Below, piece after piece: positions 2,665-20,876 of a stretch of 20,876 nt of DNA. Position 1 is the stretch's first letter; every line of letters starts with the position of its first letter. The DNA is taken from NCBI GenBank assembly GCA_002269645.1, contig NIVC01005216.1, forward strand, positions 1 to 20,876, read 5' to 3'. Under the pieces are notes generated by a model that was not told the DNA's origin, did no database searches, and worked only from the letters and a program-made list of their open reading frames with translations. Source of the DNA: Macrostomum lignano (lineage: Eukaryota). A program made the position numbers and the translations under genes.

Positions 2665-3417
2665 AGTAGAAGGCATGAGGGGGCTTCTGGGACAAAATTT
2701 TTCACCTCCTCCATAATCCACCTAAATCCATCCATATTATCCCCGACAGAATCAGAAAAAAAGGGGGGTCGCACTCGCTCACAAAACATCCTCCATAATC
2801 CCATTAAATCCATCCATATTATCCCTGACAGAATCAGAGCATAACAGGTGTCCTAGTTGCTCCGAAAACTTCGAACATAATCCCATTAAATCCATCCATA
2901 TTATCCCTGAATCAGAGCATAACAGGTGTCGCACTCGCTTACAAAACTTCGAACATAATCCTCCTAACCTATCCTCCTTCCTCCACGACAGAATCAGAGC
3001 ATAGCAGGTGTCCTACATAATCCACTGACATCCACCCATAGCATCTTCGAAACAATCAGAAAACAATCTGTATTCTTCTCCACACATTCAATTCGCAATT
3101 CGCTACGCATCCCAAAGACTTTGAATCCCCTAACCCAGGGTCCTTACCCTTTGAAAAAAAAATTAAATTTTCTCTAAAAATGTTTCCAGTTGTCTCTCCG
3201 GGTTCTTATTACAAAGCGCACGAGCCTAATTACAAGAGTAAGTACCGATGCAAGAAGGAATGCAGCGAGTACATGAGAAAATATTGGCCCAACGTTGATA
3301 TCAATGTCCCTAATATTAATCTAGCTCTCCAAAGACATTAGTTTCATAAGTATGGAGTAACCTATGTAAAAGATTACGATAGCTACTATAACTTTGCAGA
3401 AATCATTAGGCAATTGT
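2665..3417 (+). repeat. Left terminal inverted repeat (753 bp)
   Basis: Reverse complement of 19828-20522. Homology runs from AGTAGAAGG to ...AGGCAATTGT, with substitutions and indels. Confidence 0.93.
2711..3070 (+). repeat. ~80-bp modular minisatellite inside the left TIR (about 5 units)
   Basis: CATAATCC(CATTAAATCCATCCATATTATCCCTGACAGAATCAG) recurs at 2711, 2793, 2876, 2954 and 3016. The last two units are degenerate. Confidence 0.85.
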
Positions 3418-3423: not shown

Positions 3424-4285
3424 TTACATTCTCTCAATGATCAACGTCAATACAAACTCTTCCCCATTAAAATCAACGCCCATCCCATCTTCAGTCTCAA
3501 ACTGTAGCACAATCTCGTGAATCTCCTTATTACTCAATACAACTCTTTTCACTGGATTTGGTTTCTCTACCACCATCTGTCCTCCAGCAACAGAGTTGGA
3601 GATGTTGTACAAAATATTCGTTCGCTTTCCCTTAAATACCCAATCAAGACTGAGATTGCTTCTGATTAGAATATTCAAACCCTTTACAATGTCTGCAATA
3701 TTGGGTGCTAAGAACAAACCGCTTACACTTTCCCGGACCATTCTAACAGTCCCCGATGCTTGAGTGGCGGTCTGCGCCGCGGATTCTGCCTTATAAACTT
3801 TCTTCTCGAATCCTAGTTCCCTATACCAAGTGTCATCTTTAAACTCAACCTCCGCATTTTGTGAACTTGCATGACCACTCTCATTACAGTGAGATCATAG
3901 GTTAGTTTGACAGGGAACAGTTTCTTCTCTGGCTTACTCGCATCAGGTGTCTCAAAATGGCCTCTCTTAGTAAAGACATTTTCTAGAAAGTTATTGTAGG
4001 TATCCACACTTTGCGTGCTCACATGGAATACCACAGGGTCTGCTGCTGCACCTTTCCATTTGTAATAAAACTTATTATTTGCTGCCATCACATTAGGAAC
4101 GTTTGACCAACCAGTGAAGTCGTTAAGATAGACATGGTAATTAGCACCTGGATCCAGGCGAATCGCCTGCTCTAATTTTTCAACAAACATCCCGTTTGAG
4201 TCATTAATTCGCCAGTTATTGTAATAGGAATGCTCTCCTTAGAGTGTGAAACAATGTTATTTAGTCTTTCGGCTATAGCTTCCAT
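3424..4285 (-). CDS. mCP: Minor capsid protein (penton-like), ~287 aa after repairing 2 apparent 1-nt deletions
   Basis: Joins AAAAAA-ATG at 4285 (MEAIAERLNN...) with ORFs 3813-4190 and 3424-3741. The C-terminus ETEDGMGVDFNGEEFVLTLII is Polinton penton-like. Adjacent to MCP. Confidence 0.8.
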
Positions 4286-4307
4286 TTTTTTCACACAAAA
4301 AAAATAT

Positions 4308-5593
4308 TTAAACTTTACTGGATGAATTGTTGATCATGTTAAGCTTCACCTTCCTCTCAAATGCATAGATAATGTACAGGTCCACGGGTGTTGCGACAGT
4401 CCTTTCAATGTTAGTCACGATATTCACAGGGCTGTTATCAGTAGGCATTTGTCTGGCAGACACATCAGCGCCAAACATCGGATATAGAGTTCCATATTGA
4501 AGAGCAGTGATAGCAATTCCATTGTTCTCTTTCACAGCCAAGTCGACCAACTCGCTGTAAAATTTGCTAATCTTGTTCTGACTGAAATCTCCATTTTGTG
4601 GCAGTGCAGGGTAAAGATTATCACTGATTTCATGCTGAATGGACCGCACGTCTCCATGCATGTAGCGTATAATGCTATTTGGGTTTCTCATATTAATAAT
4701 GATATACCTTGGATTGCTGCATGATCCCTCTTTAATGCAGATGTTTGTTCTAGTTTCGTTTCGCTCATCTCGACACATGTAGGCTGTGTATGCAACATCA
4801 ATGTCCTTCTCTATTGCCTTGAGATAATCCGCTTTTAGTGCAGTCTTTGGCTCAATGACTTCCAAATACAGCTCGATTCCGGTTAGCTTCACCTCCATCC
4901 TTGTGTGGTCCGCCCCAGTCCACAACACTCTACTGCGATCATCTCTAGTCATCTAAAGGTGTAGCTAAAGTTACTAGTCAGTCGATTAAATGTATTACAG
5001 AATCCACTCATGAATCTCAATGGTACAAATACATCAACAGACCGATACTGCGGGTTCTTAGCAGCATCATCAGCACCTTGCAATGCATAGTTGTATCTCT
5101 TCTTCCTCTTTTTATAGCCACTGTCATTGATGTCTCCTTCTTTTTCATCTGCAATAAAACCCGCACCACTTCCCAACTGAATAAAATCAGGATTCTCGAT
5201 CAAACAATGAGCGTCATAGACAATTCCAAAGTTGGCGATTCGCTCCAACTCTGTGCTCCCATTCGATACACTAAACTCCTTGAACATGTACGCCCAAAAG
5301 TTACTGATCAGAGCCACATCCGCATCATGCTTGTCAACGTTAGCACGAGCCGCATCCGCACCACCTTTTGTCTTGAATTGAAATGTCATATGGAAGCCGC
5401 TCTTAAGACTGTGCACACTAACCAGAGACGAACATCCATTGTATGTAAATGTCAGTGTTTGGCCAGGACCAAGATTAGTTTCATTCTGATTTTCCTGACT
5501 GGGAACTCTTACCTGAGTCGCTTTGATTGTGCTATCATCACTCAAAATAGGCTTGTTAATTTTGTAGAAAACTGGTGTCAGTGGGTCGTTCAT
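4308..5593 (-). CDS. MCP: Major capsid protein (double jelly-roll), ~428 aa after repairing one 1-nt deletion near 4952
   Basis: Two abutting 214-aa ORFs join at TTT AGA/ATG. Size, beta-rich sequence, VFVPLRFMSGFC and KLTGIELYL-type motifs, and position next to the penton gene. Confidence 0.82.
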
Positions 5594-7245: not shown

Positions 7246-7276
7246 AGGTACTTTCCGAGGGTACAAGACTAGTCTC

Positions 7277-7435
7277 AAATGACACATCTAAGTCCCAAAA
7301 TGACACATTAAGTCCAAAATGACACATCTAAGTCCCAAATGACACATCTAAGTCCCAAAATGACACATCTAAGTCCCAAAATGACACATCTAAGTCCCAA
7401 AATGACACATCTAAGTCCCGAAATGACACATCTAA
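7277..7435 (+). repeat. 21-bp tandem repeat AATGACACATCTAAGTCCCAA, ~8 copies
   Basis: ATGACACAT at 7279, 7300, 7319, 7339, 7360, 7381, 7402 and 7423. Confidence 0.95.
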
Positions 7436-7473
7436 ATTATTTATTATTTAATTTTTTTTTCATCATAGAAAAA

Positions 7474-8272
7474 ATGGACTTTTCAAACGACTTCAATCCT
7501 CACTGGACGCGTAATCAGATTAAGTTTTCTCATCATGAGTCAATCCCGAGTCACTTCAGATGCATTGTTGTTGGTTCATCAGGTTCAGGTAAAACATTCA
7601 GAGTCTTTAACATGCTTCTTAGACCTGGCTTTATCGACTATGACACTCTGCACATCTACTCTCCCACACTGTATCAAGATGAGTATAAAATGCTGATTTC
7701 TGGATTGCAAAACAAACTGAACAAAGAGGACATTATTCATGTTTTAATAACCAAAAATCCTTCCCAGTAACCCAGAAATTGTAGCTGCTGAATATGCAAA
7801 GCACCTCAAAGACAATGAAAAATGGCAGAACATTAAAGTGTTCACCTATGGAGATCCACAGGCTGATCCAAAGACCAAACTTCTACCCCAACCAGATGAG
7901 CTAGAAAAGGGGAGAAAGCATTTGATCGTCTTTGATGATTGTATGACAGGCCCACAGAAGCAGATAGAAAACTATTTTACAAGAGGGCGACATAACAATT
8001 GTAATGTAATTTACATTGCACAGAATTGGTTCGAGCTCCCGAACAAAACAATTCGTGGGAACTGCAATCTGATTCTCCTGTTTCCAACCATTCCACAGGA
8101 CAGGTTAAAAAGATTTTACAATGAGGTCATTGCGCCTGCCTATTTCATAAATCCAACAAAAAACTCAAGCAGAAAGATTTCACAAGAGGAATTCGTTAAT
8201 CTTTGCTATGACAAGTGGAATCAGCCTTACCAGTTTGTGATTATCAGCAAAGAAAAAAGAACTGTAATTTAA
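7474..8272 (+). CDS. ATPase: A32/FtsK-HerA-type DNA packaging ATPase, ~266 aa after 2 repairs near 7745-7775
   Basis: Walker A GSSGSGKT, Walker B HLIVFDD, FTRGRHNN motif, IRGN. Start at tagaaaaaATG 7474. Confidence 0.93.
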
Positions 8273-9198: not shown

Positions 9199-9947
9199 AT
9201 GGCCCAACAAAATTCTCTATACGATCAGTCTCAATACGTTGAACCTAAAATACCGACAGCACCAAACTCAATGGCACCGAATTCGAACACACAAAACCTG
9301 GCACCGAATCTGAATGCACCCAATATGAGCAACAAAAACTCTACCCCGTCATTACTTGTAACTCTCAACAGTTTCGACTGGTGGAGATTCAAAAAATGCG
9401 CGATGATCTTGAAAAAAATATTTTCCACAACACAAAGAAAATTAAGCGCTATGACAACCACTGTAAATTTTTCGACTACAGCAATATGATTCTAGGATCT
9501 GTGTCTGTTCTATCTGGATCTGCTGCAGCTGTCTCAGTGTTGCCAGTCATCACAGCCCCAATCGCAATCCCGCTCGGCTCTGTGGGTGCTGCATGTGGAC
9601 TTATTTCAGCAATTACTGGAGCATTAGCGCGAAACAGGCGAAAAAAACTAAAGCAGCTACAGGAGAAGCAAGTAAAAGAGAAAGGGGTGCACACTTCAAT
9701 CATAGGGTACATTTCAAGGGCAATCGAGGATAAGTTCATTTCAGAGGATGAGTTCAAAACCATTCAGGATCTTTATGAACAATCAATTCGAATGAACTTG
9801 AACATGGTCGGTACTGATGACATGAGTCAGCTGAGAAATGAACTCGAGAAAGTTCTTCAACATTATGTGGAAAGAAGGACAACGAGAAGTACAACGAGAA
9901 TGCACAATGAACCCTATGAAACACAGCCAAGAATAATTTCCTTGTAG
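9199..9947 (+). CDS. Polinton-type protein with two hydrophobic (TM-like) segments, ~249 aa after one repair near 9373
   Basis: MAQQNSLY...NSFRLVEIQKMRDDLEKNI...MILGSVSVLSGSAAAVSVLPVITAPIAIPLGSVGAACGLISAITGAL-ARNRRKK...ISRAIEDKFISEDEF. Confidence 0.75.
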
Positions 9948-10314
9948 GTCTTTCGTGTTTTGGTCATTGCATACAAAACAGTCATGCACAGCTCACCGCA
10001 AATATCACTGCTAAGACCTTGGAGAATAAAGTCTGAGCGATAAATTTTTTTATTATTTTTTCCCTTCATATAATTTCTTAGCTCTTCTGGTACTGCCGTC
10101 CCATAGCTATCGAAGTAATAACACTTGTGCTTGCGATCGGGATCAATCACCCAGCAAACCCAATGAGATCCTGGCTTATCGGTGGTGTCAAAGTTCATGA
10201 TGCCGCATTCTTTCTTAGAGGAAAATCAGGCAGAGTGTCCCTCATAAATATTCCTCTAAAGTTTGGGATTTCCAGTTCGTTAGCCAAATCTTCAAGAAAG
10301 TTATTTGTCGTCAT
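9914..10314 (-). CDS. PRO: Adenain-like cysteine maturation protease, ~133 aa after one repair near 10210
   Basis: FRGIFMRDTLP, NFDTTDKPGSHWV (His), YFDSYG (Asp), LQGLSSDICG (Gln/Cys). Start taaaaaATG 10314. Confidence 0.92.
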
Positions 10315-10347: not shown

Positions 10348-13300
10348 CTAAACCCAATATCCACCTCCTAAACCTAATCTCCAATGCCCGAACGGTAGAC
10401 TGTTGATATTGTCATCAAAAATGAATCTCTTGTTATCTGCACCTGACAGTCCAATCTTCTTTTGCTGAATTGTGTGAATAATATGGTTTTTAGATTGTAG
10501 CTTTGAGAACTCATGTGATGTCTTTTTGTTGCAATTCAAGGCGTCTCTGTATTCAGCTTCATTAATTTCCTTCCTAACCACACGTTTCGGAATTCCCTTT
10601 GATTTTTTAATTGGGTCTGACGACTCACATTTTACAAAATAGGACTTTGCTCTCAACCCAATGAATTCAGTGATTATGTCACCAGCAATCTCGTCCTTCA
10701 TTTTCCCAATCACTTTCTTGTTAGTGGCGTCAAACACTTGATCGCCATTCTGTGTCCTGCAAGATTCATCATACTCAGACAAGTCAAACAAATCTTTTTG
10801 CTGCAGCATGTCCTGATAAATGTCTTCTGTTTGAATGTCCATAATAAAACTGTCTGTGTCAGTGTACAAGAGTTTCATTTTATCCTTGTACTGCTGCTTC
10901 ATGCCATAGAAGAACTGGTACATCAGACGTTTTGATTCGTCGAGAACAGTGACACCTGTATAGATCGGCTTGCGCAGCGTCACCTTGGTTTTGTAAAATA
11001 TGATCACACCTAAGTAGCTATTAAAGATATGGAGTTCTTTGAATGTTGGCTTTGACATATTTGCCTGAATAACAGCAGGCTCTGATGAGGTAACAAGTTT
11101 CAGGTTTGTTCTTTTCCGCTCATTCTCAAGAGTCTTGCCATAGACAGAGTTGTTGGCCAACTTAAAGAGGTTCTTGTCAAAGTCGTTGGTTGCTTTGGTC
11201 CTAAACTGGGTGTTCTTATCAATGTAGGGTTTCATCCACGCTTCCTCTGTAAATGTAAGAGCCCTGTGAACTTTGGTGACCCTGCAACCAAGTGAGATAA
11301 AATACTGAAGCAGTTTGTAATGGATTTTGTAACGTGTCTTGTTGTTTAGATTCTGTGTTAGTTTCTCTGTATGTTCTTTTTCTGTTCCTGACAGGTGCCA
11401 AGTTCCATTATTATCATTGGGAGTTTCGATTATTTTCGGGCACTTGATGTTCTCTGGGAAGGGTGGAAAGTCAGAGAAATAGTCGTGAAGCTCTGGTGGA
11501 ATGTAAACATCAACCTCATAAATGGCAGCCAATGAAAAGTCCCATTTGAATTCTGATGAGGGTAGCCATCGAAAATCTCTAACTGGAAGATCTTGACTCA
11601 TCGCCCACCCGTAGAGATTATTAGCGTCCAAGTAAGTAATGTAGTTTGAGGGCTGCTCCTTATTGTAAGATTCAATGTAGGGATTGTTTGCTTTTGCATA
11701 CCTGTTAACGCAAATTGAGATCCCCCTCGCTTTGACGATTCGACAAAATTGTACATGTCAATGTCTGTAAGAAGTTCAATGTACCAATCTGGATCTTGAT
11801 CCCATTTCATTTTAAGCAAAGATTCCCAGCTAGTGGCAGGCAGAGACACATAATGTGCTGGATCGAGGCCATATGCTGTGTACCAGGTGTATCTGAAGGT
11901 TTCAAACACATCGGCCAGCAGAAACACATCTGTGAAGAGGTAAAGCAGGTGATACTGGAAGAAGTTTTGACAATTAAAGTAATTATAGACATGCTTCGCG
12001 TGCTCATAGTCTTTGTCAGAGATTCCAGAGTCTGTTAGCTTTGAAAAGAACTTCTCCTGTGGTGGTAAACCTTCTTCAAATACGTGATACCCAGTAATAT
12101 TTTCATAGGGGTAGAAGCCTTTCTTTCTTAAGTTTAAATGATTCATCACTGTTGTTAATTTTACTTGCAAACATCTTTGTATATGTACATTGTTCATCTT
12201 TTAGATTCTTGCTTAGTTCGTCTAGACTGGCAGCTAGAAATTGATATGAATCCTTCAGTCTTATTTTACCTGTACCCGAATTATCCTGTTTAATATCAAC
12301 ACACTTAAACTTCTCCTTGTTCTCTGCGATGCAATCAAGGTGTATGTCTGGAATCATGCCGATTTTTTCAACTATTAAATGCATGTCATAGTTCTTTGCG
12401 TTGTGACAAAATATCGTTAGATCATGAATGTTCGATTTTAGCTTTAGATTACAGGTGTTATGCGCTGCACCTCTAAATTTCCCAGTAAAGTGGCAGTGGT
12501 CCCTAACGGTGGGGTTTTTAATATTAGTGCAAGTTAAATGTTTCCTGCAGATGTGGCAATGAGTTGCTGATAGGAAATTGCTTTCATCCTCCTCAGTCAT
12601 CATTATTGGAACAGGTTGAAGGGTGCTAATCACTTTTTGCAACTCTAACATTCTGGCAATAAACTGCTCCACACACTGCTCTCCAAAGAAATAATTATAC
12701 TCAACAAGTCCTTTTGTATTAATAAAGGCATATGCTACTGAATTGGGGACATGTTTTTGAGTTTGAGTTTGAGTTTTTGAGTTTTTGGCACGATTGAGCA
12801 TTCGAAATCAGCATATACAACAAATGGGAGCTTCTCCATCTTGTGATAGTTCTTAAACCGGAGATACTTCTCTTCAGCTGAAGGAAGAGAGCAGTTTGTC
12901 GGGTGATCCTCGCATGATAATTCATGCTCTGTAGTTTTTCAAAGCGTTCAGGTCCACTGTAATGCTTAAGGCACAAGCGGCAGATGGCAACAGCCTCGTG
13001 ATGATTATTCAACTGCTTGTGAATGAGTCTTGAAAGATCTTTAATCCAAACATAGTGAGCCTCCTCTAGTAAATTACCAATCACTAGAAGATCCACTTCA
13101 GTCCGCCTTTTCCCCTCAGGATCTAAAACGTCTTTGCTACATCTGACCGGTTGAACTTTCTCAGTTTTTTCACTCCACTCAAAGACTGTGATTCTAATTT
13201 TGTTATTAAACACTTCTTCTAGCTTTGGGATCTGAGAGATCGCCAAGCCTCCTTTGTCAAACCTGATTCCCTTCTTTTCGCATTCGATGAGATAGTAGTT

Positions 13301-14185
13301 GAAATAATTTTGATAATTTGAGGTTCTTTCGGGGTGGTGAGGGACACTAAAAAGTGCAGAAAGAACTGCCCATAGAGCACAGCAATTGTCTTTATTTTTA
13401 ACATTTATGCAAGCTTTTTTGCCGGCTAGCTTATGCGGGAGCTCTATATAAGAGGAGGCTTTAAGTGGGTCATATTTCATGACCATGACAGTCGCTCTTT
13501 GAATCCCTCCCACGACCCATCCGGAACCTCTGGATGTAAACGCTTCAATTTTCTTAGTGACATCTTGAAGGAAAGGATCCAGTGTGTCTGTAGGGGTGAA
13601 TGGCTTTGCCTTTGTTGTCATGTAATACTCGAGATGCTCAGTGGGTTTTGCAGGCATATAAAACGCAATCTTGAATGATATCTGTAGTTTAAAGGTCTTG
13701 CGTGTTTTGAGTGTGTGATCAACAACTGATTGGATGCTGTCTTTATAGTCGTAGATGTTTGCGGTGGTACCGTTGGTGTAATTGGGATTGTGTACTCTAT
13801 GTAATGTTCTGTAAACTTCCTCTGTGCAAAATTAATCTCTTCAATGGCAAGCTCCGACTCTTTTAAATGGATTAATTGCTCTAATTTCTCTTGTTCCTGC
13901 TTATTTTGTGGGTACTTTGCTTTTTCACCAGTGAGAGTTTCGTATTTGTTAACTAAGTTGCGACTCCTCTCTTGGTGTTCCTTTGCAGGATTTTTTATAG
14001 GCGCATACTGGTTGGATTCTAATTGATTGATGATTTCCAACTGTTTTTCATAGCTTCCCAGGTGACCAGGGTCGGTGTTAACTTTTGTTTGCATGCTTCT
14101 CTTAGTAATTACTTTTGTCTTGAAATGAGACGCCTTTTGAAAAATATTTGTTGACTAAATCTTTTGCTGGATTAGCTTTTGGCAT
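10348..14185 (-). CDS. pPolB: Protein-primed family B DNA polymerase, ~1280 aa after repairing 7 indel sites
   Basis: Exo motifs YADFE, HNAKNYD, YLFTDV. Pol motifs DANNLYGWAM, KLANNSVYGK, YTDTDS. KGFYPYE and an EndoVII-like Zn finger (CHIC...RDHCH...AHNTCN). Start 14185 is inferred; 14094 is the ORF-track start. Confidence 0.96.
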
Positions 14186-14768: not shown

Positions 14769-15787
14769 TTAATTAATTTCTGTGTCAGCTGGTATCACTA
14801 GGAGTTCAGCTCTAGTGAATGACCGCGTGGGGGATTTAGGGTTAAAGGCTGAGATAAAAAGTAATAGTCACCGAGTCGGAGGTAAAATGTCTGTCTATTT
14901 TATGTACATCAAGGCTGAAGTATGGATCTGTAGCTCTTCTTTTGGTGTCTTCTCTAGCTCTCCAGGTAGATATAAAAAGCGTAGAAACTCAGAGTTTGTC
15001 AGTATGTATGGTGATTCAACTCCTGGAAGCTTAGGGTAGTTCGAGGTGTGTTTTGTGTTGTGTGTGTTGTGTGGGGTTGTCGTGTTGTTGTCTGTTCTAT
15101 GAGATGCCTTAAGTTCGACAGTGTCTTGTTTAATTGCATGGGACGGTTTCAATCCAGTCATGCGTGTGACTTCATTGTTCAGTTGCTCTATAACAGTGGG
15201 GAGTCTTTCTGTCCACTTGGTATAGTACTGCCCGCACTCAGTTTGAGTTCTTGCGCTGTCTGCTTAGTGAATAGCCTCTTGGCTAGAGTTAGATTGAATC
15301 TTTCCACAAAAGCCTGGTCTCTGTGCAAGTTTGTTCTGCCATAGCGAATCTCTGTATTTTTCTTTTCCATAAGGGATTTCACTGCACCCATGAATTCCTT
15401 ACCCGGGTCGGTCATAAAGATTTCGGAGAGTTTTTATAAATATCTTGCAGTGCGCTGGCAACAACCTCTGACTTCTTCGTCTTGAGTGGGCGAGCTTCCT
15501 TATATCTGGAAGCAATGTCTGTAATTGTAGAGCATACTTGTAGCCTGAGTCATTGGGGAGAAACAAAAGATCTGCTTGGTGCGCTCATTAGGTTTATAAA
15601 TACTGAAATGGGGCCTTTCAAATTTTACTGGTGGGAAATAGACTTGAAAGACAGCCTGCTTAGAGAGCCATTTTTCTACTGTAGCTTTTGGTTCCTTACT
15701 CAGCTCCATGAGTTTACTAACGGCATTTTTGCCTACAAAGAATCCTTTGTCGCTGTAGTAGAGTTTTTTAAGTTTCTGATCTGTCAT
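14769..15787 (-). CDS. INT: Retroviral-like (rve) DDE integrase, about 6 apparent indels
   Basis: LKKLYYS, HQADLLFL (D), MTDPGKEF (D), QAFVERFNLTL (E), KRRATDPYFS, and C-terminal RSFTRAELLVIP. Confidence 0.92.
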
Positions 15788-15817: not shown

Positions 15818-16258
15818 ATGCAACGCTCTGGTGGTAAAATAGATTCACATGGACTGATAGAAAAGCTTCCTCATCCAAACAAAGGCTGGACACTTCCCGG
15901 CTATAAATATTGCGGGCCTTTGAATCCACTTGAAATACAGCTGGATGGAAAAACAACCAAATCCTGGGCATGAGCCTGTGAACGAGCTAGACTCTGTCTG
16001 CATGTGGCACGACGTTAAATATAGAGATTTTCCTGAGGAGAAGAATCGCTGGGACAAAGAAATGCTTAGGAGACTCGACAATATGGGGATTTCAAGCGGA
16101 TTTCGTGAGTCGATTGCTAGGAAATTAGTCAAGGCGTTATTTTTAGTAAGGCAAAGTTGGGATTAGGAATGGCGCTGAGGGTGGGTGCACGGGAGAGAGG
16201 GCGGACGCACTTTATTTTGTGTGCTCCAAACAATGAATTAGAAGACTGGGGCTGTTGA
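15818..16258 (+). CDS. Parvovirus VP1u-type phospholipase A2
   Basis: Ca-loop LPGYKYCGP, PVNELDSVCMWHDVKY (HD catalytic), WDKEML, VKAKLGLG after repair. Without the second repair it ends at 16166. Confidence 0.88.
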
Positions 16259-16598
16259 GAGAGGCGCTTGAGTCGGGAAAGATTATTCGCAGCCAAGCGC
16301 AACAGCTGCATTTCGAAAAGGGGTGGGGTAACTGCTATTTGCTGAGGGAGCGCAGCTTTTGCGAATGTACAAGTTCCACGCGTGCTTTCCTTTCCTTTCC
16401 TTTCTTTCCTTTGTATTGCGCACGCCAAATAACGAATTAGAAAGACTGCTGAACAGTTTACATTGATAAACAACTGAAAGACTGAAGCGACAGATTATAG
16501 TCGCTATATAGTTTATTAGTTTATTATAGTTTTTCATGTGGTAAGCAACGTGGCAACAACAGAGCATGCAGCAGAAGACAGAATGCCTATCTTAGGTA

Positions 16599-16904
16599 AA
16601 AATAATAATAATTGATTACACCTGCCCAATGGGCAGATGTGCAACCGACAGCTCAGCCGCAGCTATTGCGCGGCGCATCTGAAGGCTGCGTGCGGCTGTT
16701 CAGTCCAAGGACTGGGGGTCGCCACACACACCCTCAATTACTCCAGCTAATGCTGGTACCCATTTTACAGCTGGGTGAACTGAAGCAATGCGGAGTAAAG
16801 TGCCTTGCTCAAAGACACAGATTGTTGCAGGGGGATCGGGAATCGAACCCCCAACCTTCATTTAAGTCGTGAGTCCGACGCCCTAACCACTAGGCTACAA
16901 CCCC
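16599..16904 (-). mobile_element. tRNA-derived SINE with a CORE-like central domain, inserted inside the Polinton
   Basis: A box TAGCCTAGTGG (16897-16887), B box GGTTCGATTCC (16849-16839), then GTGTCTTTGAGCAAGGCACTT...CCCAGCTGTAAAATGGG (MIR/CORE-like) and an (ATT)n tail at ~16600-16613. No TSD found. Confidence 0.82.
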
Positions 16905-17046
16905 GTATGTGCAGGGTCTAAACTATGCAACAATATAAAAGGTTTCTGGGTGAGCGCCTGCTTTTTCTCCCCAGTCCCACCACACTGAACACCCCGCCCA
17001 GTTCTGCCTGTCTCTTTTTTTCTAGCCTCCGCAACTAGTCAAACAG

Positions 17047-18563
17047 CCACCTCAGAAAATGAAACCGCTGGTTTCAAATTTTGAGGTGGGTGATCCTCTA
17101 AAGACGCTTGTGTCTTTCTTTTTCTAGCCTCCCAACCCCCCAGAGAGGGTCGGGGGGTCTGGGTAGACCAACTCTCAGGCCAGCCCTTCTCTCACCCGTC
17201 TTGCCCCACCGCCTCTCATTCCAAGCCTGTCCTCTGGGTGCCTCTCTTCGCAACTAGCTCTCTCTAAGCCTCCTAGTCAAACAGCCACCTCAGAAAATGA
17301 AACCGCTGGTTTCAAATTTTGAGGTGGGTGATCTGAGTTCTGCACTGCTTCTCTAGCCTCCGCAACTAGCTCTACGCTCTCCCGAGCTCATTCTATTTTT
17401 AGTCAAACATAACACTAGCGATCTCGCGCTGGGGGTAGAGGGGCGCCTGGGAATTTTGAGTCTCCCGTTGTACTGAAATCTCCTTCCCTTGAGCTCCTCT
17501 CCCTTTCCCTTCCCCAGCAGTCCGTGCCAGAGCATTGGGCTCTCTTTGCACAGGGGCGCCACCTCAGAAAATGAAACCGCTGGTTTCAAATTTTGAGGTG
17601 GGTCTACACTGCTGCGCTATCCAGTTCTCACCCGCCCTGCCACTCACTGCATGCAGTCCGCGCATTCCGCCACAAGTCCCCCTTCTCTCTCACCCACCCT
17701 CCCTCTGCAATTCACTTCTGTGCAGTGCAGCGCCAAAGCCAAAAGAGAATTGCAGAGGGTTGAGGGTTGATCCGGGCGGGAGGGGGTCTTTCTTTTTCTA
17801 GCCTCCACAACTAGCCGCTCCGTTTTCTTCTGCGCTCTCCCGAGCTTAGTCAAACAGCCACCTCAGAAAATGAAACCGCTGGTTTCAAATTTTGAGGTGG
17901 GTCTACACTGCTGCGCTATCCAGTTCTCACCCGCCCTGCCACTCACTGCATGCAGTCCGCGCATTCCGCCACAAGTCCCCCTTCTCTCTCCACCCACCCT
18001 CCCTCTGCAATTCACTTCTGTGCAGTGCAGCGCCAAAGCCAAAAGAGAATTGCAGAGGGTTGAGGGTTGATCCGGGCGGGAGGGGTCTTTCTTTTTCTAG
18101 CCTCCACAACTAGCCGCTCCGTTTTCTTCTGCGCTCTCCCGAGCTTAGTCAAACAGCCACCTCAGAAAATGAAACCACTGGTTTCAAATTTTGAGGTGGG
18201 TGATCTCTTCTATGCTCTCCCAACGCATGGTATGGGTTTTATTTTTAGAACTTACGTCTACACTCTACAAGGTACAACCTTCTGGTGATCCCTCCGTTTT
18301 CTTCTACGCTCTCCTAGTCAAACAGCCACCTCAGAAAATGAAACCGTTGGTTTCAAATTTTGAGGTGGGTGATCTGAGTTCTGCACTGCTTCCAGCAGAA
18401 ACATTTTTCTACACTGTCCCAAGCAAATTTGCTATTTTAATCAGACACCCACCTCAGAAAATGAAACCAGTGGTTTCAAAATTTGAGGTGGGCAATCAAA
18501 ATGGCATACTTGTTAAACAACCACCCCAGAAAATGAAACCAGTGGTTTCAAAATTTGAGGTTG
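17047..18563 (+). repeat. Array of 8 imperfect 43-bp palindromes CCACCTCAGAAAATGAAACC-NNN-GGTTTCAAATTTTGAGGTGG with variable spacers
   Basis: Copies start at 17047, 17285, 17559, 17858, 18157, 18326, 18449 and 18521. 17 of 20 stem positions are Watson-Crick. Confidence 0.95.
17559..18156 (+). repeat. Near-perfect 299-bp tandem duplication within the array
   Basis: 17559-17857 and 17858-18156 differ, as far as I can see, only by a +C and a -G in homopolymers. Confidence 0.92.
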
Positions 18564-18616
18564 GTGTCAATATTAGTAATAAAAAACTATCCAAGGATAA
18601 CTTGCTATTATTATAG
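18191..18616 (+). CDS. Possible 3' part of a repeat protein with VKQPPQKMKP(L/V)VS(N/K)FEVG units
   Basis: Open frame holding 3 repeat copies in phase (spacings 123 and 72 nt), with mostly synonymous repeat variation. It stops 43 nt from the convergent gene's stop. True start unknown. Confidence 0.4.
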   Translation: MRWVISSMLSQRMVWVLFLELTSTLYKVQPSGDPSVFFYALLVKQPPQKMKPLVSNFEVGDLSSALLPAETFFYTVPSKFAILIRHPPQKMKPVVSKFEVGNQNGILVKQPPQKMKPVVSKFEVGVNISNKKLSKDNLLLL

Positions 18617-18659
18617 CTTCATGAGTTGCTAAATAAACAATACATTGCTAATTTAAAAG

Positions 18660-19283
18660 TCAAAACAACAAGCCTTCGTCCACTTCCTGTTGCAGCATCG
18701 CAAGGGCCTCTGGCAAGTATGCAATCATCGACTTCAGCTTGTGCAGGGACATTGCAGATCTTTGTAGCACCGGATATTTCTCAGCTTGGTCAGCCAATTT
18801 CATCAGAAAGTTGGTCCACTGGCTGGTGAACGGTGCACGTCTTTTCAGCTCGTTGAACTGTTCCTTACTGAGAACCCGCTCCATTCTCAGAAAGATCCTG
18901 CCGAGCTGTAGGCCGTTTGCAAAGCCATGCTTACCATGCCGTTCAACTAGCTTATGAAGGTTGGCAATCTGTACAAGCACTGCGTCGATCGTAAATGTTC
19001 CCTGCGTAAATTCTTCTAGAGAATGCACTGGCACAGGCTCACTGTTGGTTTTGTAGGCCGTGCGCAACTCGTCCAGAGCCTTGCCGATTTGTAATTGCTT
19101 GTCGGTAGTTTTCGCTAGCCGTCCATTGATAGTTGGCTTCACGATTGGTGACCGAGCAATTGCATTGTATTTATCGGCCCAAACATTCCAGTTGTCGAGA
19201 TCTTTACTATAAAATACAGCCTTTATGAAGTTATCCAGATTTTGGATGTAAACGTTGTTGCCTGCTTGCATTTCTTCATCCAT
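18660..19283 (-). CDS. Hypothetical protein (207 aa), mostly helical, possible DNA-binding regulator
   Basis: Intact ORF, GCCATGG Kozak context, TATA and HSE upstream. GLQLGRIFLRME...F..L...FTSQWTNFLMKLA is loosely DUF3102-like by eye only. Confidence 0.8.
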   Translation of the reverse strand: MDEEMQAGNNVYIQNLDNFIKAVFYSKDLDNWNVWADKYNAIARSPIVKPTINGRLAKTTDKQLQIGKALDELRTAYKTNSEPVPVHSLEEFTQGTFTIDAVLVQIANLHKLVERHGKHGFANGLQLGRIFLRMERVLSKEQFNELKRRAPFTSQWTNFLMKLADQAEKYPVLQRSAMSLHKLKSMIAYLPEALAMLQQEVDEGLLF

Positions 19284-19400
19284 GGCAAGATCCAGAGATT
19301 AAGCTAGTCAAAAATAAGAAGTTGCTGGCTCAGCGAGTTGAGGCGGGGCGAGGCGAGGCGGAGCAGGCTGGGTGAGGCGAGGGGCGATGTGAATCGGCTG

Positions 19401-19408
19401 TATATATA
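19401..19408 (-). promoter_or_regulatory. TATA box (TATATATA) for the 207-aa gene
   Basis: Isolated TATA run in a GC-rich context, ~118 nt upstream of ATG 19283 and 40 nt downstream of the HSE. The sequence is symmetric, so direction is inferred from context. Confidence 0.6.
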
Positions 19409-19447
19409 CCATTGGTGTGGGCTCGGGAATCCACGGATTCTCTTTTT

Positions 19448-19481
19448 GTTCTAGAATTTTCTAGAATTCGAATTCTAGAAG
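19448..19481. promoter_or_regulatory. Heat-shock element cluster
   Basis: gTTCtaGAAttTTCtaGAAt gives four contiguous perfect alternating nGAAn units (19448-19467), plus another TTCtaGAA at 19473-19480. Confidence 0.75.
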
Positions 19482-19825
19482 GGAAACCCGCAGATTTTCT
19501 ACTTATAGCCAGTATTTTCTATTAATGGTTGATTGGGGTTGCCTGGAAAGATCTAGGAAGACTGCTAAAAGAGCTGGGGGTTGAGAAGGCTGGGGGTTTA
19601 AACAAGGAACTAAATGGGCGTTTCTGAAGCTAGGCAAGGGATCTTCTGAGCTAGTTAAGGCTTGAGCTGGGCAAAAGCTTTTTCTCTATGCTGCACAGCC
19701 GCTCGCGCTATGACAAGAAACAGCTGCCATACCCATTCGCTATCACCCACCCACACAGCAAAATACATGCGTAAAAATATATATTAATGCAGTCTTAAAG
19801 TCTTAAAGCGTATTGTAACGACATT

Positions 19826-20063
19826 CTACAATTGCCTAATGATTTCTGCAAAGTTATAGTAGCTGTCGTAATCTTTTACGTAGGTTACTCCATACTTATG
19901 AACCAGTGTCTTTGGAGAGCTAGATTAATATTAGGGACATTGATATCAACGTTGGGCCAATATTTTCTCATGTACTCGCTGCATTCAAGTTTGCATTGGT
20001 ACTTGGATTTGTACAATGGATTAGGCTGAGTATAATAAGAACTGGAGAGACAACTGGAAACAT
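19826..20063 (-). CDS. TIR-embedded small protein, right copy (two apparent 1-nt deletions)
   Basis: 238 nt versus 240 in the left copy. Repaired: MFPVVSPGSYYTQPNPLYKSKYQCKLECSEYMRKYWPNVDINVPNINLALQRHWFHKYGVTYVKDYDSYYNFAEIIRQL*. Confidence 0.6.
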
Positions 20064-20522
20064 TTTTATTGAGAATTTAATTTTTTTCAAAGGGTAAGGA
20101 CCCTGGGTTAGGGGATTTAAAGTTTTAGGGATCTGGTTTCGCCGCTTCGGATTGAATGTGGGCCCCATGGGAGAAGAATGCAGATTTTTTTTCTGATTGT
20201 TTCGAAGATGCTATGGGTGGATGTTGGTGGATGATGTCAGTGTCAGTGAGCATAACAGGTGTCCACTGTCTGATTCTGTCGGGATAATATGGATGGATTT
20301 AATAGGATTATGTTCGAAGTTTTCAGAGCAAGTGCGGCCCCTCCCCTTTTTCATGATTCTGTCAGGGATAATATGGATGGATTTAATGGGATTATGGAGG
20401 ACGTTTTGTGAGCGAGTGCGACCCCCCTTTTTTTCTGATTCTGTCAGGGATAATATGGATGGATTTAATGGATTATGGAGGACGTGAAAAATTTTGTCCA
20501 AAAGCCCCTCATGCCTTCTACT
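19828..20522 (-). repeat. Right terminal inverted repeat (695 bp), with 3 clear minisatellite units at ~20270-20480
   Basis: Reverse complement of the left TIR. Shorter because it has fewer degenerate repeat units. Confidence 0.93.
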
Positions 20523-20613: not shown

Positions 20614-20775
20614 TTAAAAAGTTAACTTACGCTTTTTCATAAACTGTAGCATCGCTTGTCTCTCAAGACGACGTTTTTTTCTTAGATTGACCACGCTTCG
20701 TAGATCGTAGCGACCGCGTTGCTGCTGCTGCTTCTTCTTCTTCTTCATCTTCATCTGCTGCTGCTGTTGTTGCTT

Positions 20776-20808
<33 letters not shown>

Positions 20809-20835
20809 TTCCTCCTCCTCCTGCTGTTGTTGTTG

Positions 20836-20874
<39 letters not shown>
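20614..20874 (-). CDS. 3' end of a polyglutamine ORF running in from the window edge
   Basis: Frame reads Q(n)EEEEQ(n)KQ(n)MKMKKKKKQQQQRGRYDLRSVVNLRKKRRLERQAMLQFMKKRKLTF*. Mixed CAG/CAA/GAG/AAG codons stay in one frame. Not in the ORF track. Confidence 0.55.

Positions 20875-20876
<2 letters not shown>
20719..20876 (+). repeat. Compound (CTG/TTG/CTT/CTC)n trinucleotide repeat
   Basis: Directly visible; it encodes the polyQ/K/E tract on the minus strand. Confidence 0.95.

Follow-up and report, generated by a model that had tools for sequence, protein, structure and literature searches.

The window analyzed here, a 20,876-nt stretch of the genome of the flatworm Macrostomum lignano that makes up the entire contig NIVC01005216.1, contains one Polinton/Maverick element between terminal inverted repeats (TIRs) at positions 2665 to 3417 and 19826 to 20522, and the segment presented above is the outer end of the variable accessory slot of an M. 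lignano Polinton family. Alignment with host genes showed that roughly 118 nt from the core promoter of a cytosolic hsp90 gene of the host was copied into this Polinton, where it stands, with a four-unit heat-shock element (HSE), before a 207-amino-acid open reading frame (ORF), here called cargo A. Comparison of copies showed that no fewer than seven divergent cargo genes have been combined with this promoter module. In the preferred reading, which is about as likely as not, the captured promoter lets host heat-shock factor (HSF) raise the level of a cargo protein that would bind its own palindromes and adjust the element.

Origin and layout of the captured promoter

The homologous tract (19391 to 19508, minus strand) was identical to the host promoter at 101/118 nt without gaps (E 5e-35 against L143, L157, and L158). 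It spans an A/T-rich upstream motif, an out-of-register TTC/GAA pair, the HSE array, a 40-nt spacer, the TATA box, and the start region, and the colinear similarity extends past the HSE to include the spacer, the TATA flanks, and the upstream motif. In a genome-wide exact search, the 18-mer of the four-unit array had 61 forward matches and 57 reverse ones, and the reversed sequence used as a control had none. Among 27 fetched, previously unplaced sites, three precede a cytosolic Hsp90 ORF of the host by 193 nt. The promoter is carried by four copies of the donor hsp90 gene (L143, L157, L158, and L159), and within the 4.4-kb hsp90 locus it is the only Polinton-like part. The module had no match in 30 hsp70 loci and seven other hsp90 loci, and the captured tract does not include a GC box and a second A/T-rich motif that are located further upstream in host hsp90.

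The first-pass annotation of this DNA had proposed a promoter of the heat-shock type in a Polinton, a proposal supported by the descent of the tract from hsp90, and its motif coordinates were all correct when rechecked against the window sequence. The four contiguous in-register TTC/GAA units that it described were confirmed as a perfect HSE at 19466 to 19449 (minus strand), within a whole TTC/GAA tract at 19480 to 19449; the same array lies at -193 in the donor hsp90. This four-unit array occurred once in the window and in 0/100 dinucleotide shuffles, while the two three-unit matches in the window were both at the same site, a number reached by 5/100 shuffles. The upstream two-unit pair (19473 to 19480, minus strand; units at 19480 and 19475), also present in hsp90, is out of register because it is 14 nt off the main array, as the first-pass annotation had implied, and it has been lost through an 11-nt deletion in some copies. 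The TATA box TATATATA (19401 to 19408, minus strand) is separated from the HSE by a 40-nt gap and is aligned with the hsp90 TATA box; at least three in-register nGAAn units near a TATA box, as in an HSF-regulated promoter, were present, in the layout of the host hsp90.

Further upstream, a copy of the motif CTAAAAATAG with one non-consensus base was found at 19499 to 19508 (minus strand). This motif, of a type presumably describable as MEF2-like, lies upstream of the HSEs in host hsp90 and hsp70 promoters. In the two hsp70 classes as well as the two cytosolic hsp90 paralogs (L031 to L048, L143, and L159 to L161), it was observed a few tens of bases upstream of an HSE, and it is possibly a co-element of flatworm heat-shock promoters. 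Downstream, a GC-rich leader with GCCTC-type repeats (19284 to 19390, minus strand) forms the junction where different cargo genes join the module, and the GCCATGG start reported previously was found at 19286 to 19280. The CCAAT motif that had been assigned to the promoter is present (19536 to 19532, minus strand) but lies outside the hsp90-homologous tract. A distal HSE-like triplet (19558 to 19546, minus strand), likewise outside the tract, has two mismatches and was rejected as an HSE; it belongs to a stretch duplicated, in antisense, from the 3' end of the element's phospholipase-like gene and is missing from 11 copies (L069 to L079) that retain the module.

Cargo K (L115, L123, L146, and L169) is preceded by a second version of the hsp90 promoter, which lies at the opposite end of the slot and runs in the reverse direction. 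Three-way comparison gave 12 positions where hsp90 matched the K version against the window version and another 12 where the reverse held; at none did both viral versions share a base that differed from hsp90. In addition, the donor promoter could be aligned with its counterpart in the other cytosolic hsp90 paralog (55/73 nt). The host was taken as the source because hsp90 is central in this comparison, because its promoter aligns with that of the other paralog, and because CTAAAAATAG recurs in hsp70 promoters. The pattern suggests that two separate captures from hsp90 are likely. A 68- to 78-nt piece of the same core, comprising the upstream motif and the HSE, was also seen at an unrelated host locus (L144:2213-2289, L168, and L170), head to head with an ORF that is presumably TMEM17/216-like; the array is degraded in two of the three copies.

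Among close copies of the 207-amino-acid gene (77 to 100% identity), the array was kept at 18/23 loci, two of which duplicate others, and the five loci without it carry different sequence upstream. Sister copies that share the TIR and the module and then run into other genes had the array at 18/19 loci; the genes that follow it there belong to six additional cargo types, of which four contain an intron. This retention in related copies agrees with the first-pass annotation. In blastn comparisons among cargos, types A, B, and G had no match to one another or to the remaining types, and silent sites were saturated among C, D, and E; the module has therefore moved between cargos. When slots were picked via the neighboring PLA2-like gene, the best 40 of 278 were taken, a sample biased toward the window copy; of these, 12 had the window module, one of them assigned across a 6.6-kb gap, 2 had the K version, and 6 had an unrelated four-unit HSE, which in 5 cases preceded cargo M. 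An HSE was present in 19/24 sampled slots with a recognizable cargo. The slots are mosaics in which pieces of TIR, spacer, and gene ends have been reshuffled.

Conservation of the module was tested with 26 haplotypes from 41/68 loci. Core triplet columns were variable at 1/18 positions versus 42/148 elsewhere (p 0.026, among related copies), giving modest support for conservation of the HSE bases. Deletions within the module hit the out-of-register pair or the spacer and never the array. They repeatedly measured 11 nt, about one helical turn (L011, L064 to L067, L138, and the K copies), and short direct repeats could explain them.

Cargo M (Mlig026570 in NCBI) is preceded by a four-unit HSE of its own, with a TATA-like box about 15 nt further on (L114, L117, L128 to L130, and L125) and with 15 exact sites genome-wide. 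The same perfect four-unit HSE as in the window module, with TATA-like boxes on both sides, was also found in a repeated element (L133, L134, L136, L140, L149, L150, and L155), which helicase-like and OB-fold-like ORFs adjoin at four loci and which is presumably Helitron-like.

Cargo protein and palindromes

The type A cargo ORF (18660 to 19283, minus strand), whose end nearest the TIR is 540 nt inward of the right TIR, encodes an all-helical protein with an acidic-hydrophobic C terminus. It is under purifying selection, with dN 0.10 versus dS 0.33 against L097 and 0.026 versus 0.099 against L010. Its C-terminal domain (residues 93 to 204; 18672 to 19007, minus strand) is a predicted helix-turn-helix (HTH) domain that is weakly ParB/KorB-like. 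The model (pLDDT 91.5) aligned with the ParB/Spo0J/KorB DNA-binding domain over 90 to 96 of 112 residues, with scores within the chance range. Weak profile matches among 18 family members were to HTH_23 (E 0.027) and HTH_25 (E 0.13), in 1/18 each, and Atlas leads for the domain included HTH_3, DUF3102, and the ParB HTH. No Pfam match to a ParB CTPase or ParA, the marks of a ParABS partition system, was found on the 207-amino-acid protein and the 18 other window ORFs scanned. The earlier description of the cargo as a regulator stood to the extent that the modeled protein resembles a sequence-specific DNA binder with cognate palindromes.

Downstream of the cargo A stop codon, eight copies of a 43-bp nested dyad with the 17-bp core TGAAACC-N3-GGTTTCA (17046 to 18564) offer potential binding sites for the cargo protein. 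In most cargo types, a 16- to 18-bp palindrome, often repeated, comes soon after the stop codon; cargo N gave no clear case. The palindrome sequence tracks the protein clade: TGAAA...TTTCA or ATACTGCAGTAT types were found in the A group, AACGCGTT-centered palindromes in B, M, and Q, and TCCTG/TTCTG...CAGGA/CAGAA palindromes in C to G. Between cargo A and type I, which are 38% identical, the 3' regions were still alignable (z of about 11). The persistence of palindromes past the saturation of silent sites suggests binding, and it is rather likely that the cargo is an HTH protein that recognizes its own palindromes.

Three further arrangements were seen in the 3' regions. The 3' repeat unit of cargo D (L070, after the stop codon) contains a perfect three-unit HSE beside the palindrome, and a cargo-less slot (L120) contains an imperfect palindrome, present as three repeats, that resembles the cargo K palindrome. 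Cargo J (L083 to L085 and L098), from a distant Polinton family with a polymerase about 34% identical, is 67% identical to cargo H (L086 to L089) of the window's family and has the same 3' repeat; the gene and its array therefore move between families.

Inducibility and competing explanations

In the available part of the M. lignano heat-shock table (PMC12801592), cytosolic Hsp90 clusters have log2 fold changes (log2FC) of 13.1 and 13.9, and others of 1.2 to 1.4. Pfam scores computed here for the two hsp90 paralogs were 36.5 versus 33.2 for PF02518 and 38.6 versus 39.4 for PF13589, and the table scores (56.2 versus 52.7 and 40.3 versus 41.1) show matching offsets on the assumption that the donor is the paralog with high expression and mild induction. 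In the second cytosolic paralog, four HSEs of three units each were found. The viral copy was captured without the donor GC box and second A/T-rich motif and hence could be more HSF-dependent than the donor.

In the proposed mechanism, host HSF would bind the array and raise cargo transcription on heat or proteotoxic stress, above some basal activity; this step is probable. The HTH cargo protein would then bind its own downstream 16- to 18-bp palindromes, and the bound protein may adjust transcription or replication of the element, the most likely function because the palindromes sit between the cargo and the integrase-polymerase unit. Activation is slightly favored over repression because the tails are acidic-hydrophobic and the array is placed like an enhancer. 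Induction either as a switch or as a modest boost would be compatible with this proposal, whereas the "reactivation switch" of the first-pass annotation appears doubtful. Equally tentative is a fuller, phage-like induction circuit built from host parts, in which HSF would act through the captured hsp90 promoter on an HTH activator, which would act on its own array upstream of the integrase-polymerase unit to turn the element on, with exchangeable protein-palindrome specificity cassettes and with heat control gained at least three times.

Several observations weigh against the preferred reading. The donor appears to be the paralog with a log2FC of 1.2 to 1.4 and not 13, as judged by score offsets between differing Pfam versions, and this indirect mapping therefore speaks against a tight switch. 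No published heat-shock data could be linked to the cargo gene, the cluster ids in the available part of the PMC12801592 table being unmappable, and two HSE-bearing long terminal repeat (LTR) families without induction are described in the same source. A four-unit HSE was lacking in 20/40 sampled slots, about 10 of them short and cargo-less, and in 5/24 slots with a recognizable cargo. Retention of the gene without the motif, which the first-pass annotation had named as evidence against its proposal, was seen in part: an HSE was present in 0/7 distant homolog loci and in 0/8 H-type copies in the same slot, and the gene family therefore does not need the HSE. The 12-base array alone was variable at 1/12 positions versus 42/154, a difference that was not significant among these related copies (p 0.13). 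In the cargo protein, fold scores were no better than chance helical matches, Foldseek gave no match at E<=0.001, and Pfam gave no family for the whole protein or its C-terminal domain; the covariation of palindrome and protein could reflect linkage alone. Finally, in the window copy itself the core genes are split, the TIRs have diverged, and a target duplication is absent.

The strongest competitor, possible though clearly less probable, is that the hsp90 promoter was taken as a strong, broadly active promoter, with the HSE incidental and giving a two- to threefold boost but no stress switch. Such basal use would fit the indirect mapping of the donor to high-baseMean clusters with a log2FC of 1.2 to 1.4, the contigs of run X14 (presumed RNA) that cover 18582 to 18909 and 19048 to 19354, that is, the ORF and the leader up to 19354, and the HSE-less promoters that serve cargos H, N, O, and Q. 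It does not fit the omission of the GC box and the second A/T-rich motif from the tract, the retention of the full array in both captures, the gain of an unrelated four-unit HSE by cargo M, or the deletions that spare the array while removing the out-of-register pair or the spacer. A passenger module, captured by chance and spread by recombination through its adjacency to the TIR without a selected role, is quite improbable; two captures of one gene and a third HSE promoter, all three having a TATA box on the proper ORF side, and the purifying selection on the cargos count against it, even if the slots are mosaics, 68 to 78 nt of the same core lie at an unrelated host locus, and the conservation test is modest.

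It is unlikely that the cargo is instead a repressor or immunity factor, raised by heat to silence the element when host silencing weakens, with protein-palindrome types as specificity groups comparable to phage immunity modules. KorB, which is a repressor, is among the fold matches, a single slot is shared by at least 12 divergent types, most of which have a palindrome of their own, and about 10 of the best 40 of 278 slots are short and cargo-less, indicating that the cargo gene is dispensable for being copied. The palindromes, however, lie downstream of the cargo stop codon and not on the cargo promoter, and the acidic-hydrophobic tails would better suit an activator. Hardly credible is the reversed direction, with the Polinton supplying the promoter of the donor hsp90 gene: transposons are able to donate HSEs to host genes (Helitron1_CE, cited in PMC12801592), but the hsp90 locus is otherwise without Polinton sequence over its 4.4 kb, and the central position of hsp90 and the alignment with its paralog point to the host.

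The element and its relation to known systems

The long TIRs have AG termini, as in Polintons/Mavericks, both starting with AGTAG; their identity in the window copy is just 80 to 90%. No 6-bp target-site duplication was found (flanks AGCTTA versus AAAGTC), and the copy looks recombined or old, a point that concerns the copy and not the family. The core genes included a DNA polymerase B of the protein-primed type, broken into four ORF pieces and bearing an endonuclease VII-like domain (10348 to 13657, minus strand; PF03175 E 1.5e-4 and 2.3e-4 on two pieces, both below the cutoff, and PF02945 above the cutoff), an integrase in pieces (15200 to 15787, minus strand, inner limit approximate), an A32-like packaging ATPase in two pieces (7339 to 8272, plus strand; PF04665 E 0.0015, below the cutoff), a piece of an adenovirus-type cysteine protease (9914 to 10198, minus strand; PF00770 E 0.0023, below the cutoff), and a broken phospholipase A2-like gene that forms the inner border of the variable slot (15818 to 16284, plus strand; PF08398 E 0.003, below the cutoff). 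The window integrase piece alone had no Pfam match, and the retroviral type was recognized in a sister-copy ORF in L146 (rve E 1.6e-8). Presumed major and minor capsid genes, of two ORF pieces each, were assigned by position (3424 to 5593, minus strand); these pieces had no Pfam match, and PF21738 (double jelly-roll) matches occurred at the expected distance on contigs of module-bearing sister copies. Most window scores fell below the cutoff because the genes are split. Several homopolymer runs have extra bases in public contigs compared with the window, and some of the gene breaks may therefore be assembly errors.

A tRNA-like, SINE-type insertion (16641 to 16899) lies inside the slot and was also found outside the element in L067; ARAGORN detected no tRNA in it. 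Seven 21-bp tandem repeats (7274 to 7438) lie upstream of the ATPase gene, and the flanks contain a retrotransposon aspartic protease ORF on the left (448 to 855) and a CAG/CAA repeat on the right (20614 to 20876).

The trigger of animal Polintons/Mavericks is unknown, and their particles have not been observed according to the available part of PMC8097293. The findings name host HSF as a candidate input, offer a traceable origin in two hsp90 core promoter captures, and point to a candidate output in an HTH protein with cognate palindromes; if true, the induction circuit would mean that a trigger had been identified for the first time in an animal Polinton. They also suggest that accessory slots may hold exchangeable regulator-operator cassettes and that dormant elements could read host stress via a copied hsp90 promoter. 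Work in this host can draw on transgenesis, on a reporter assay validated for HSEs, and on public 3'-end RNA-seq at 20 C versus 37 C (E-MTAB-14939; PMC12801592, available part). No HSE, captured hsp90 promoter, or such cassette in a Polinton was reported in the searched literature, whose coverage leaves out most subscription journals.

The use of HSEs by mobile elements is already known in M. lignano from the available part of PMC12801592, and the Polinton case is new as far as the literature was searched. In M. lignano LTR retrotransposons, the HSE was shown to be necessary for induction, and like the Polinton module these elements have canonical HSEs near a TATA box, gained several times in the same host; the Polinton promoter differs in preceding one accessory gene, not a whole genome, and in being traced to a specific host gene. 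The available text of that source has 0 occurrences of Polinton or Maverick. ONSEN of Arabidopsis and Helitron1_CE of Caenorhabditis elegans likewise use host HSF via HSEs, but they belong to other element classes, and an exchangeable regulator gene with palindromes was not seen in the same available text. The accessory regions of Polintons/Mavericks described in PMC8097293 likewise have variable ORFs between core modules and TIRs and AG-type termini, and its available text deals with no promoters and has 0 occurrences of helix-turn-helix and palindrome terms. In ParB/Spo0J/KorB systems, which pair with parS or operator palindromes, the 16-bp parS, in the partial account available, is close in size to the 16- to 18-bp cargo palindromes. 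Baculovirus IE1 pairs with hr palindromes. EBNA1 of Epstein-Barr virus pairs with the family of repeats (PMC2654434, available part). These pairs of a viral protein and a palindromic array that serves as an enhancer, origin, or tether provide, by analogy, the closest functional model; homology with them is not expected, and the Polinton protein and array differ in apparently forming an exchangeable cassette of many types.
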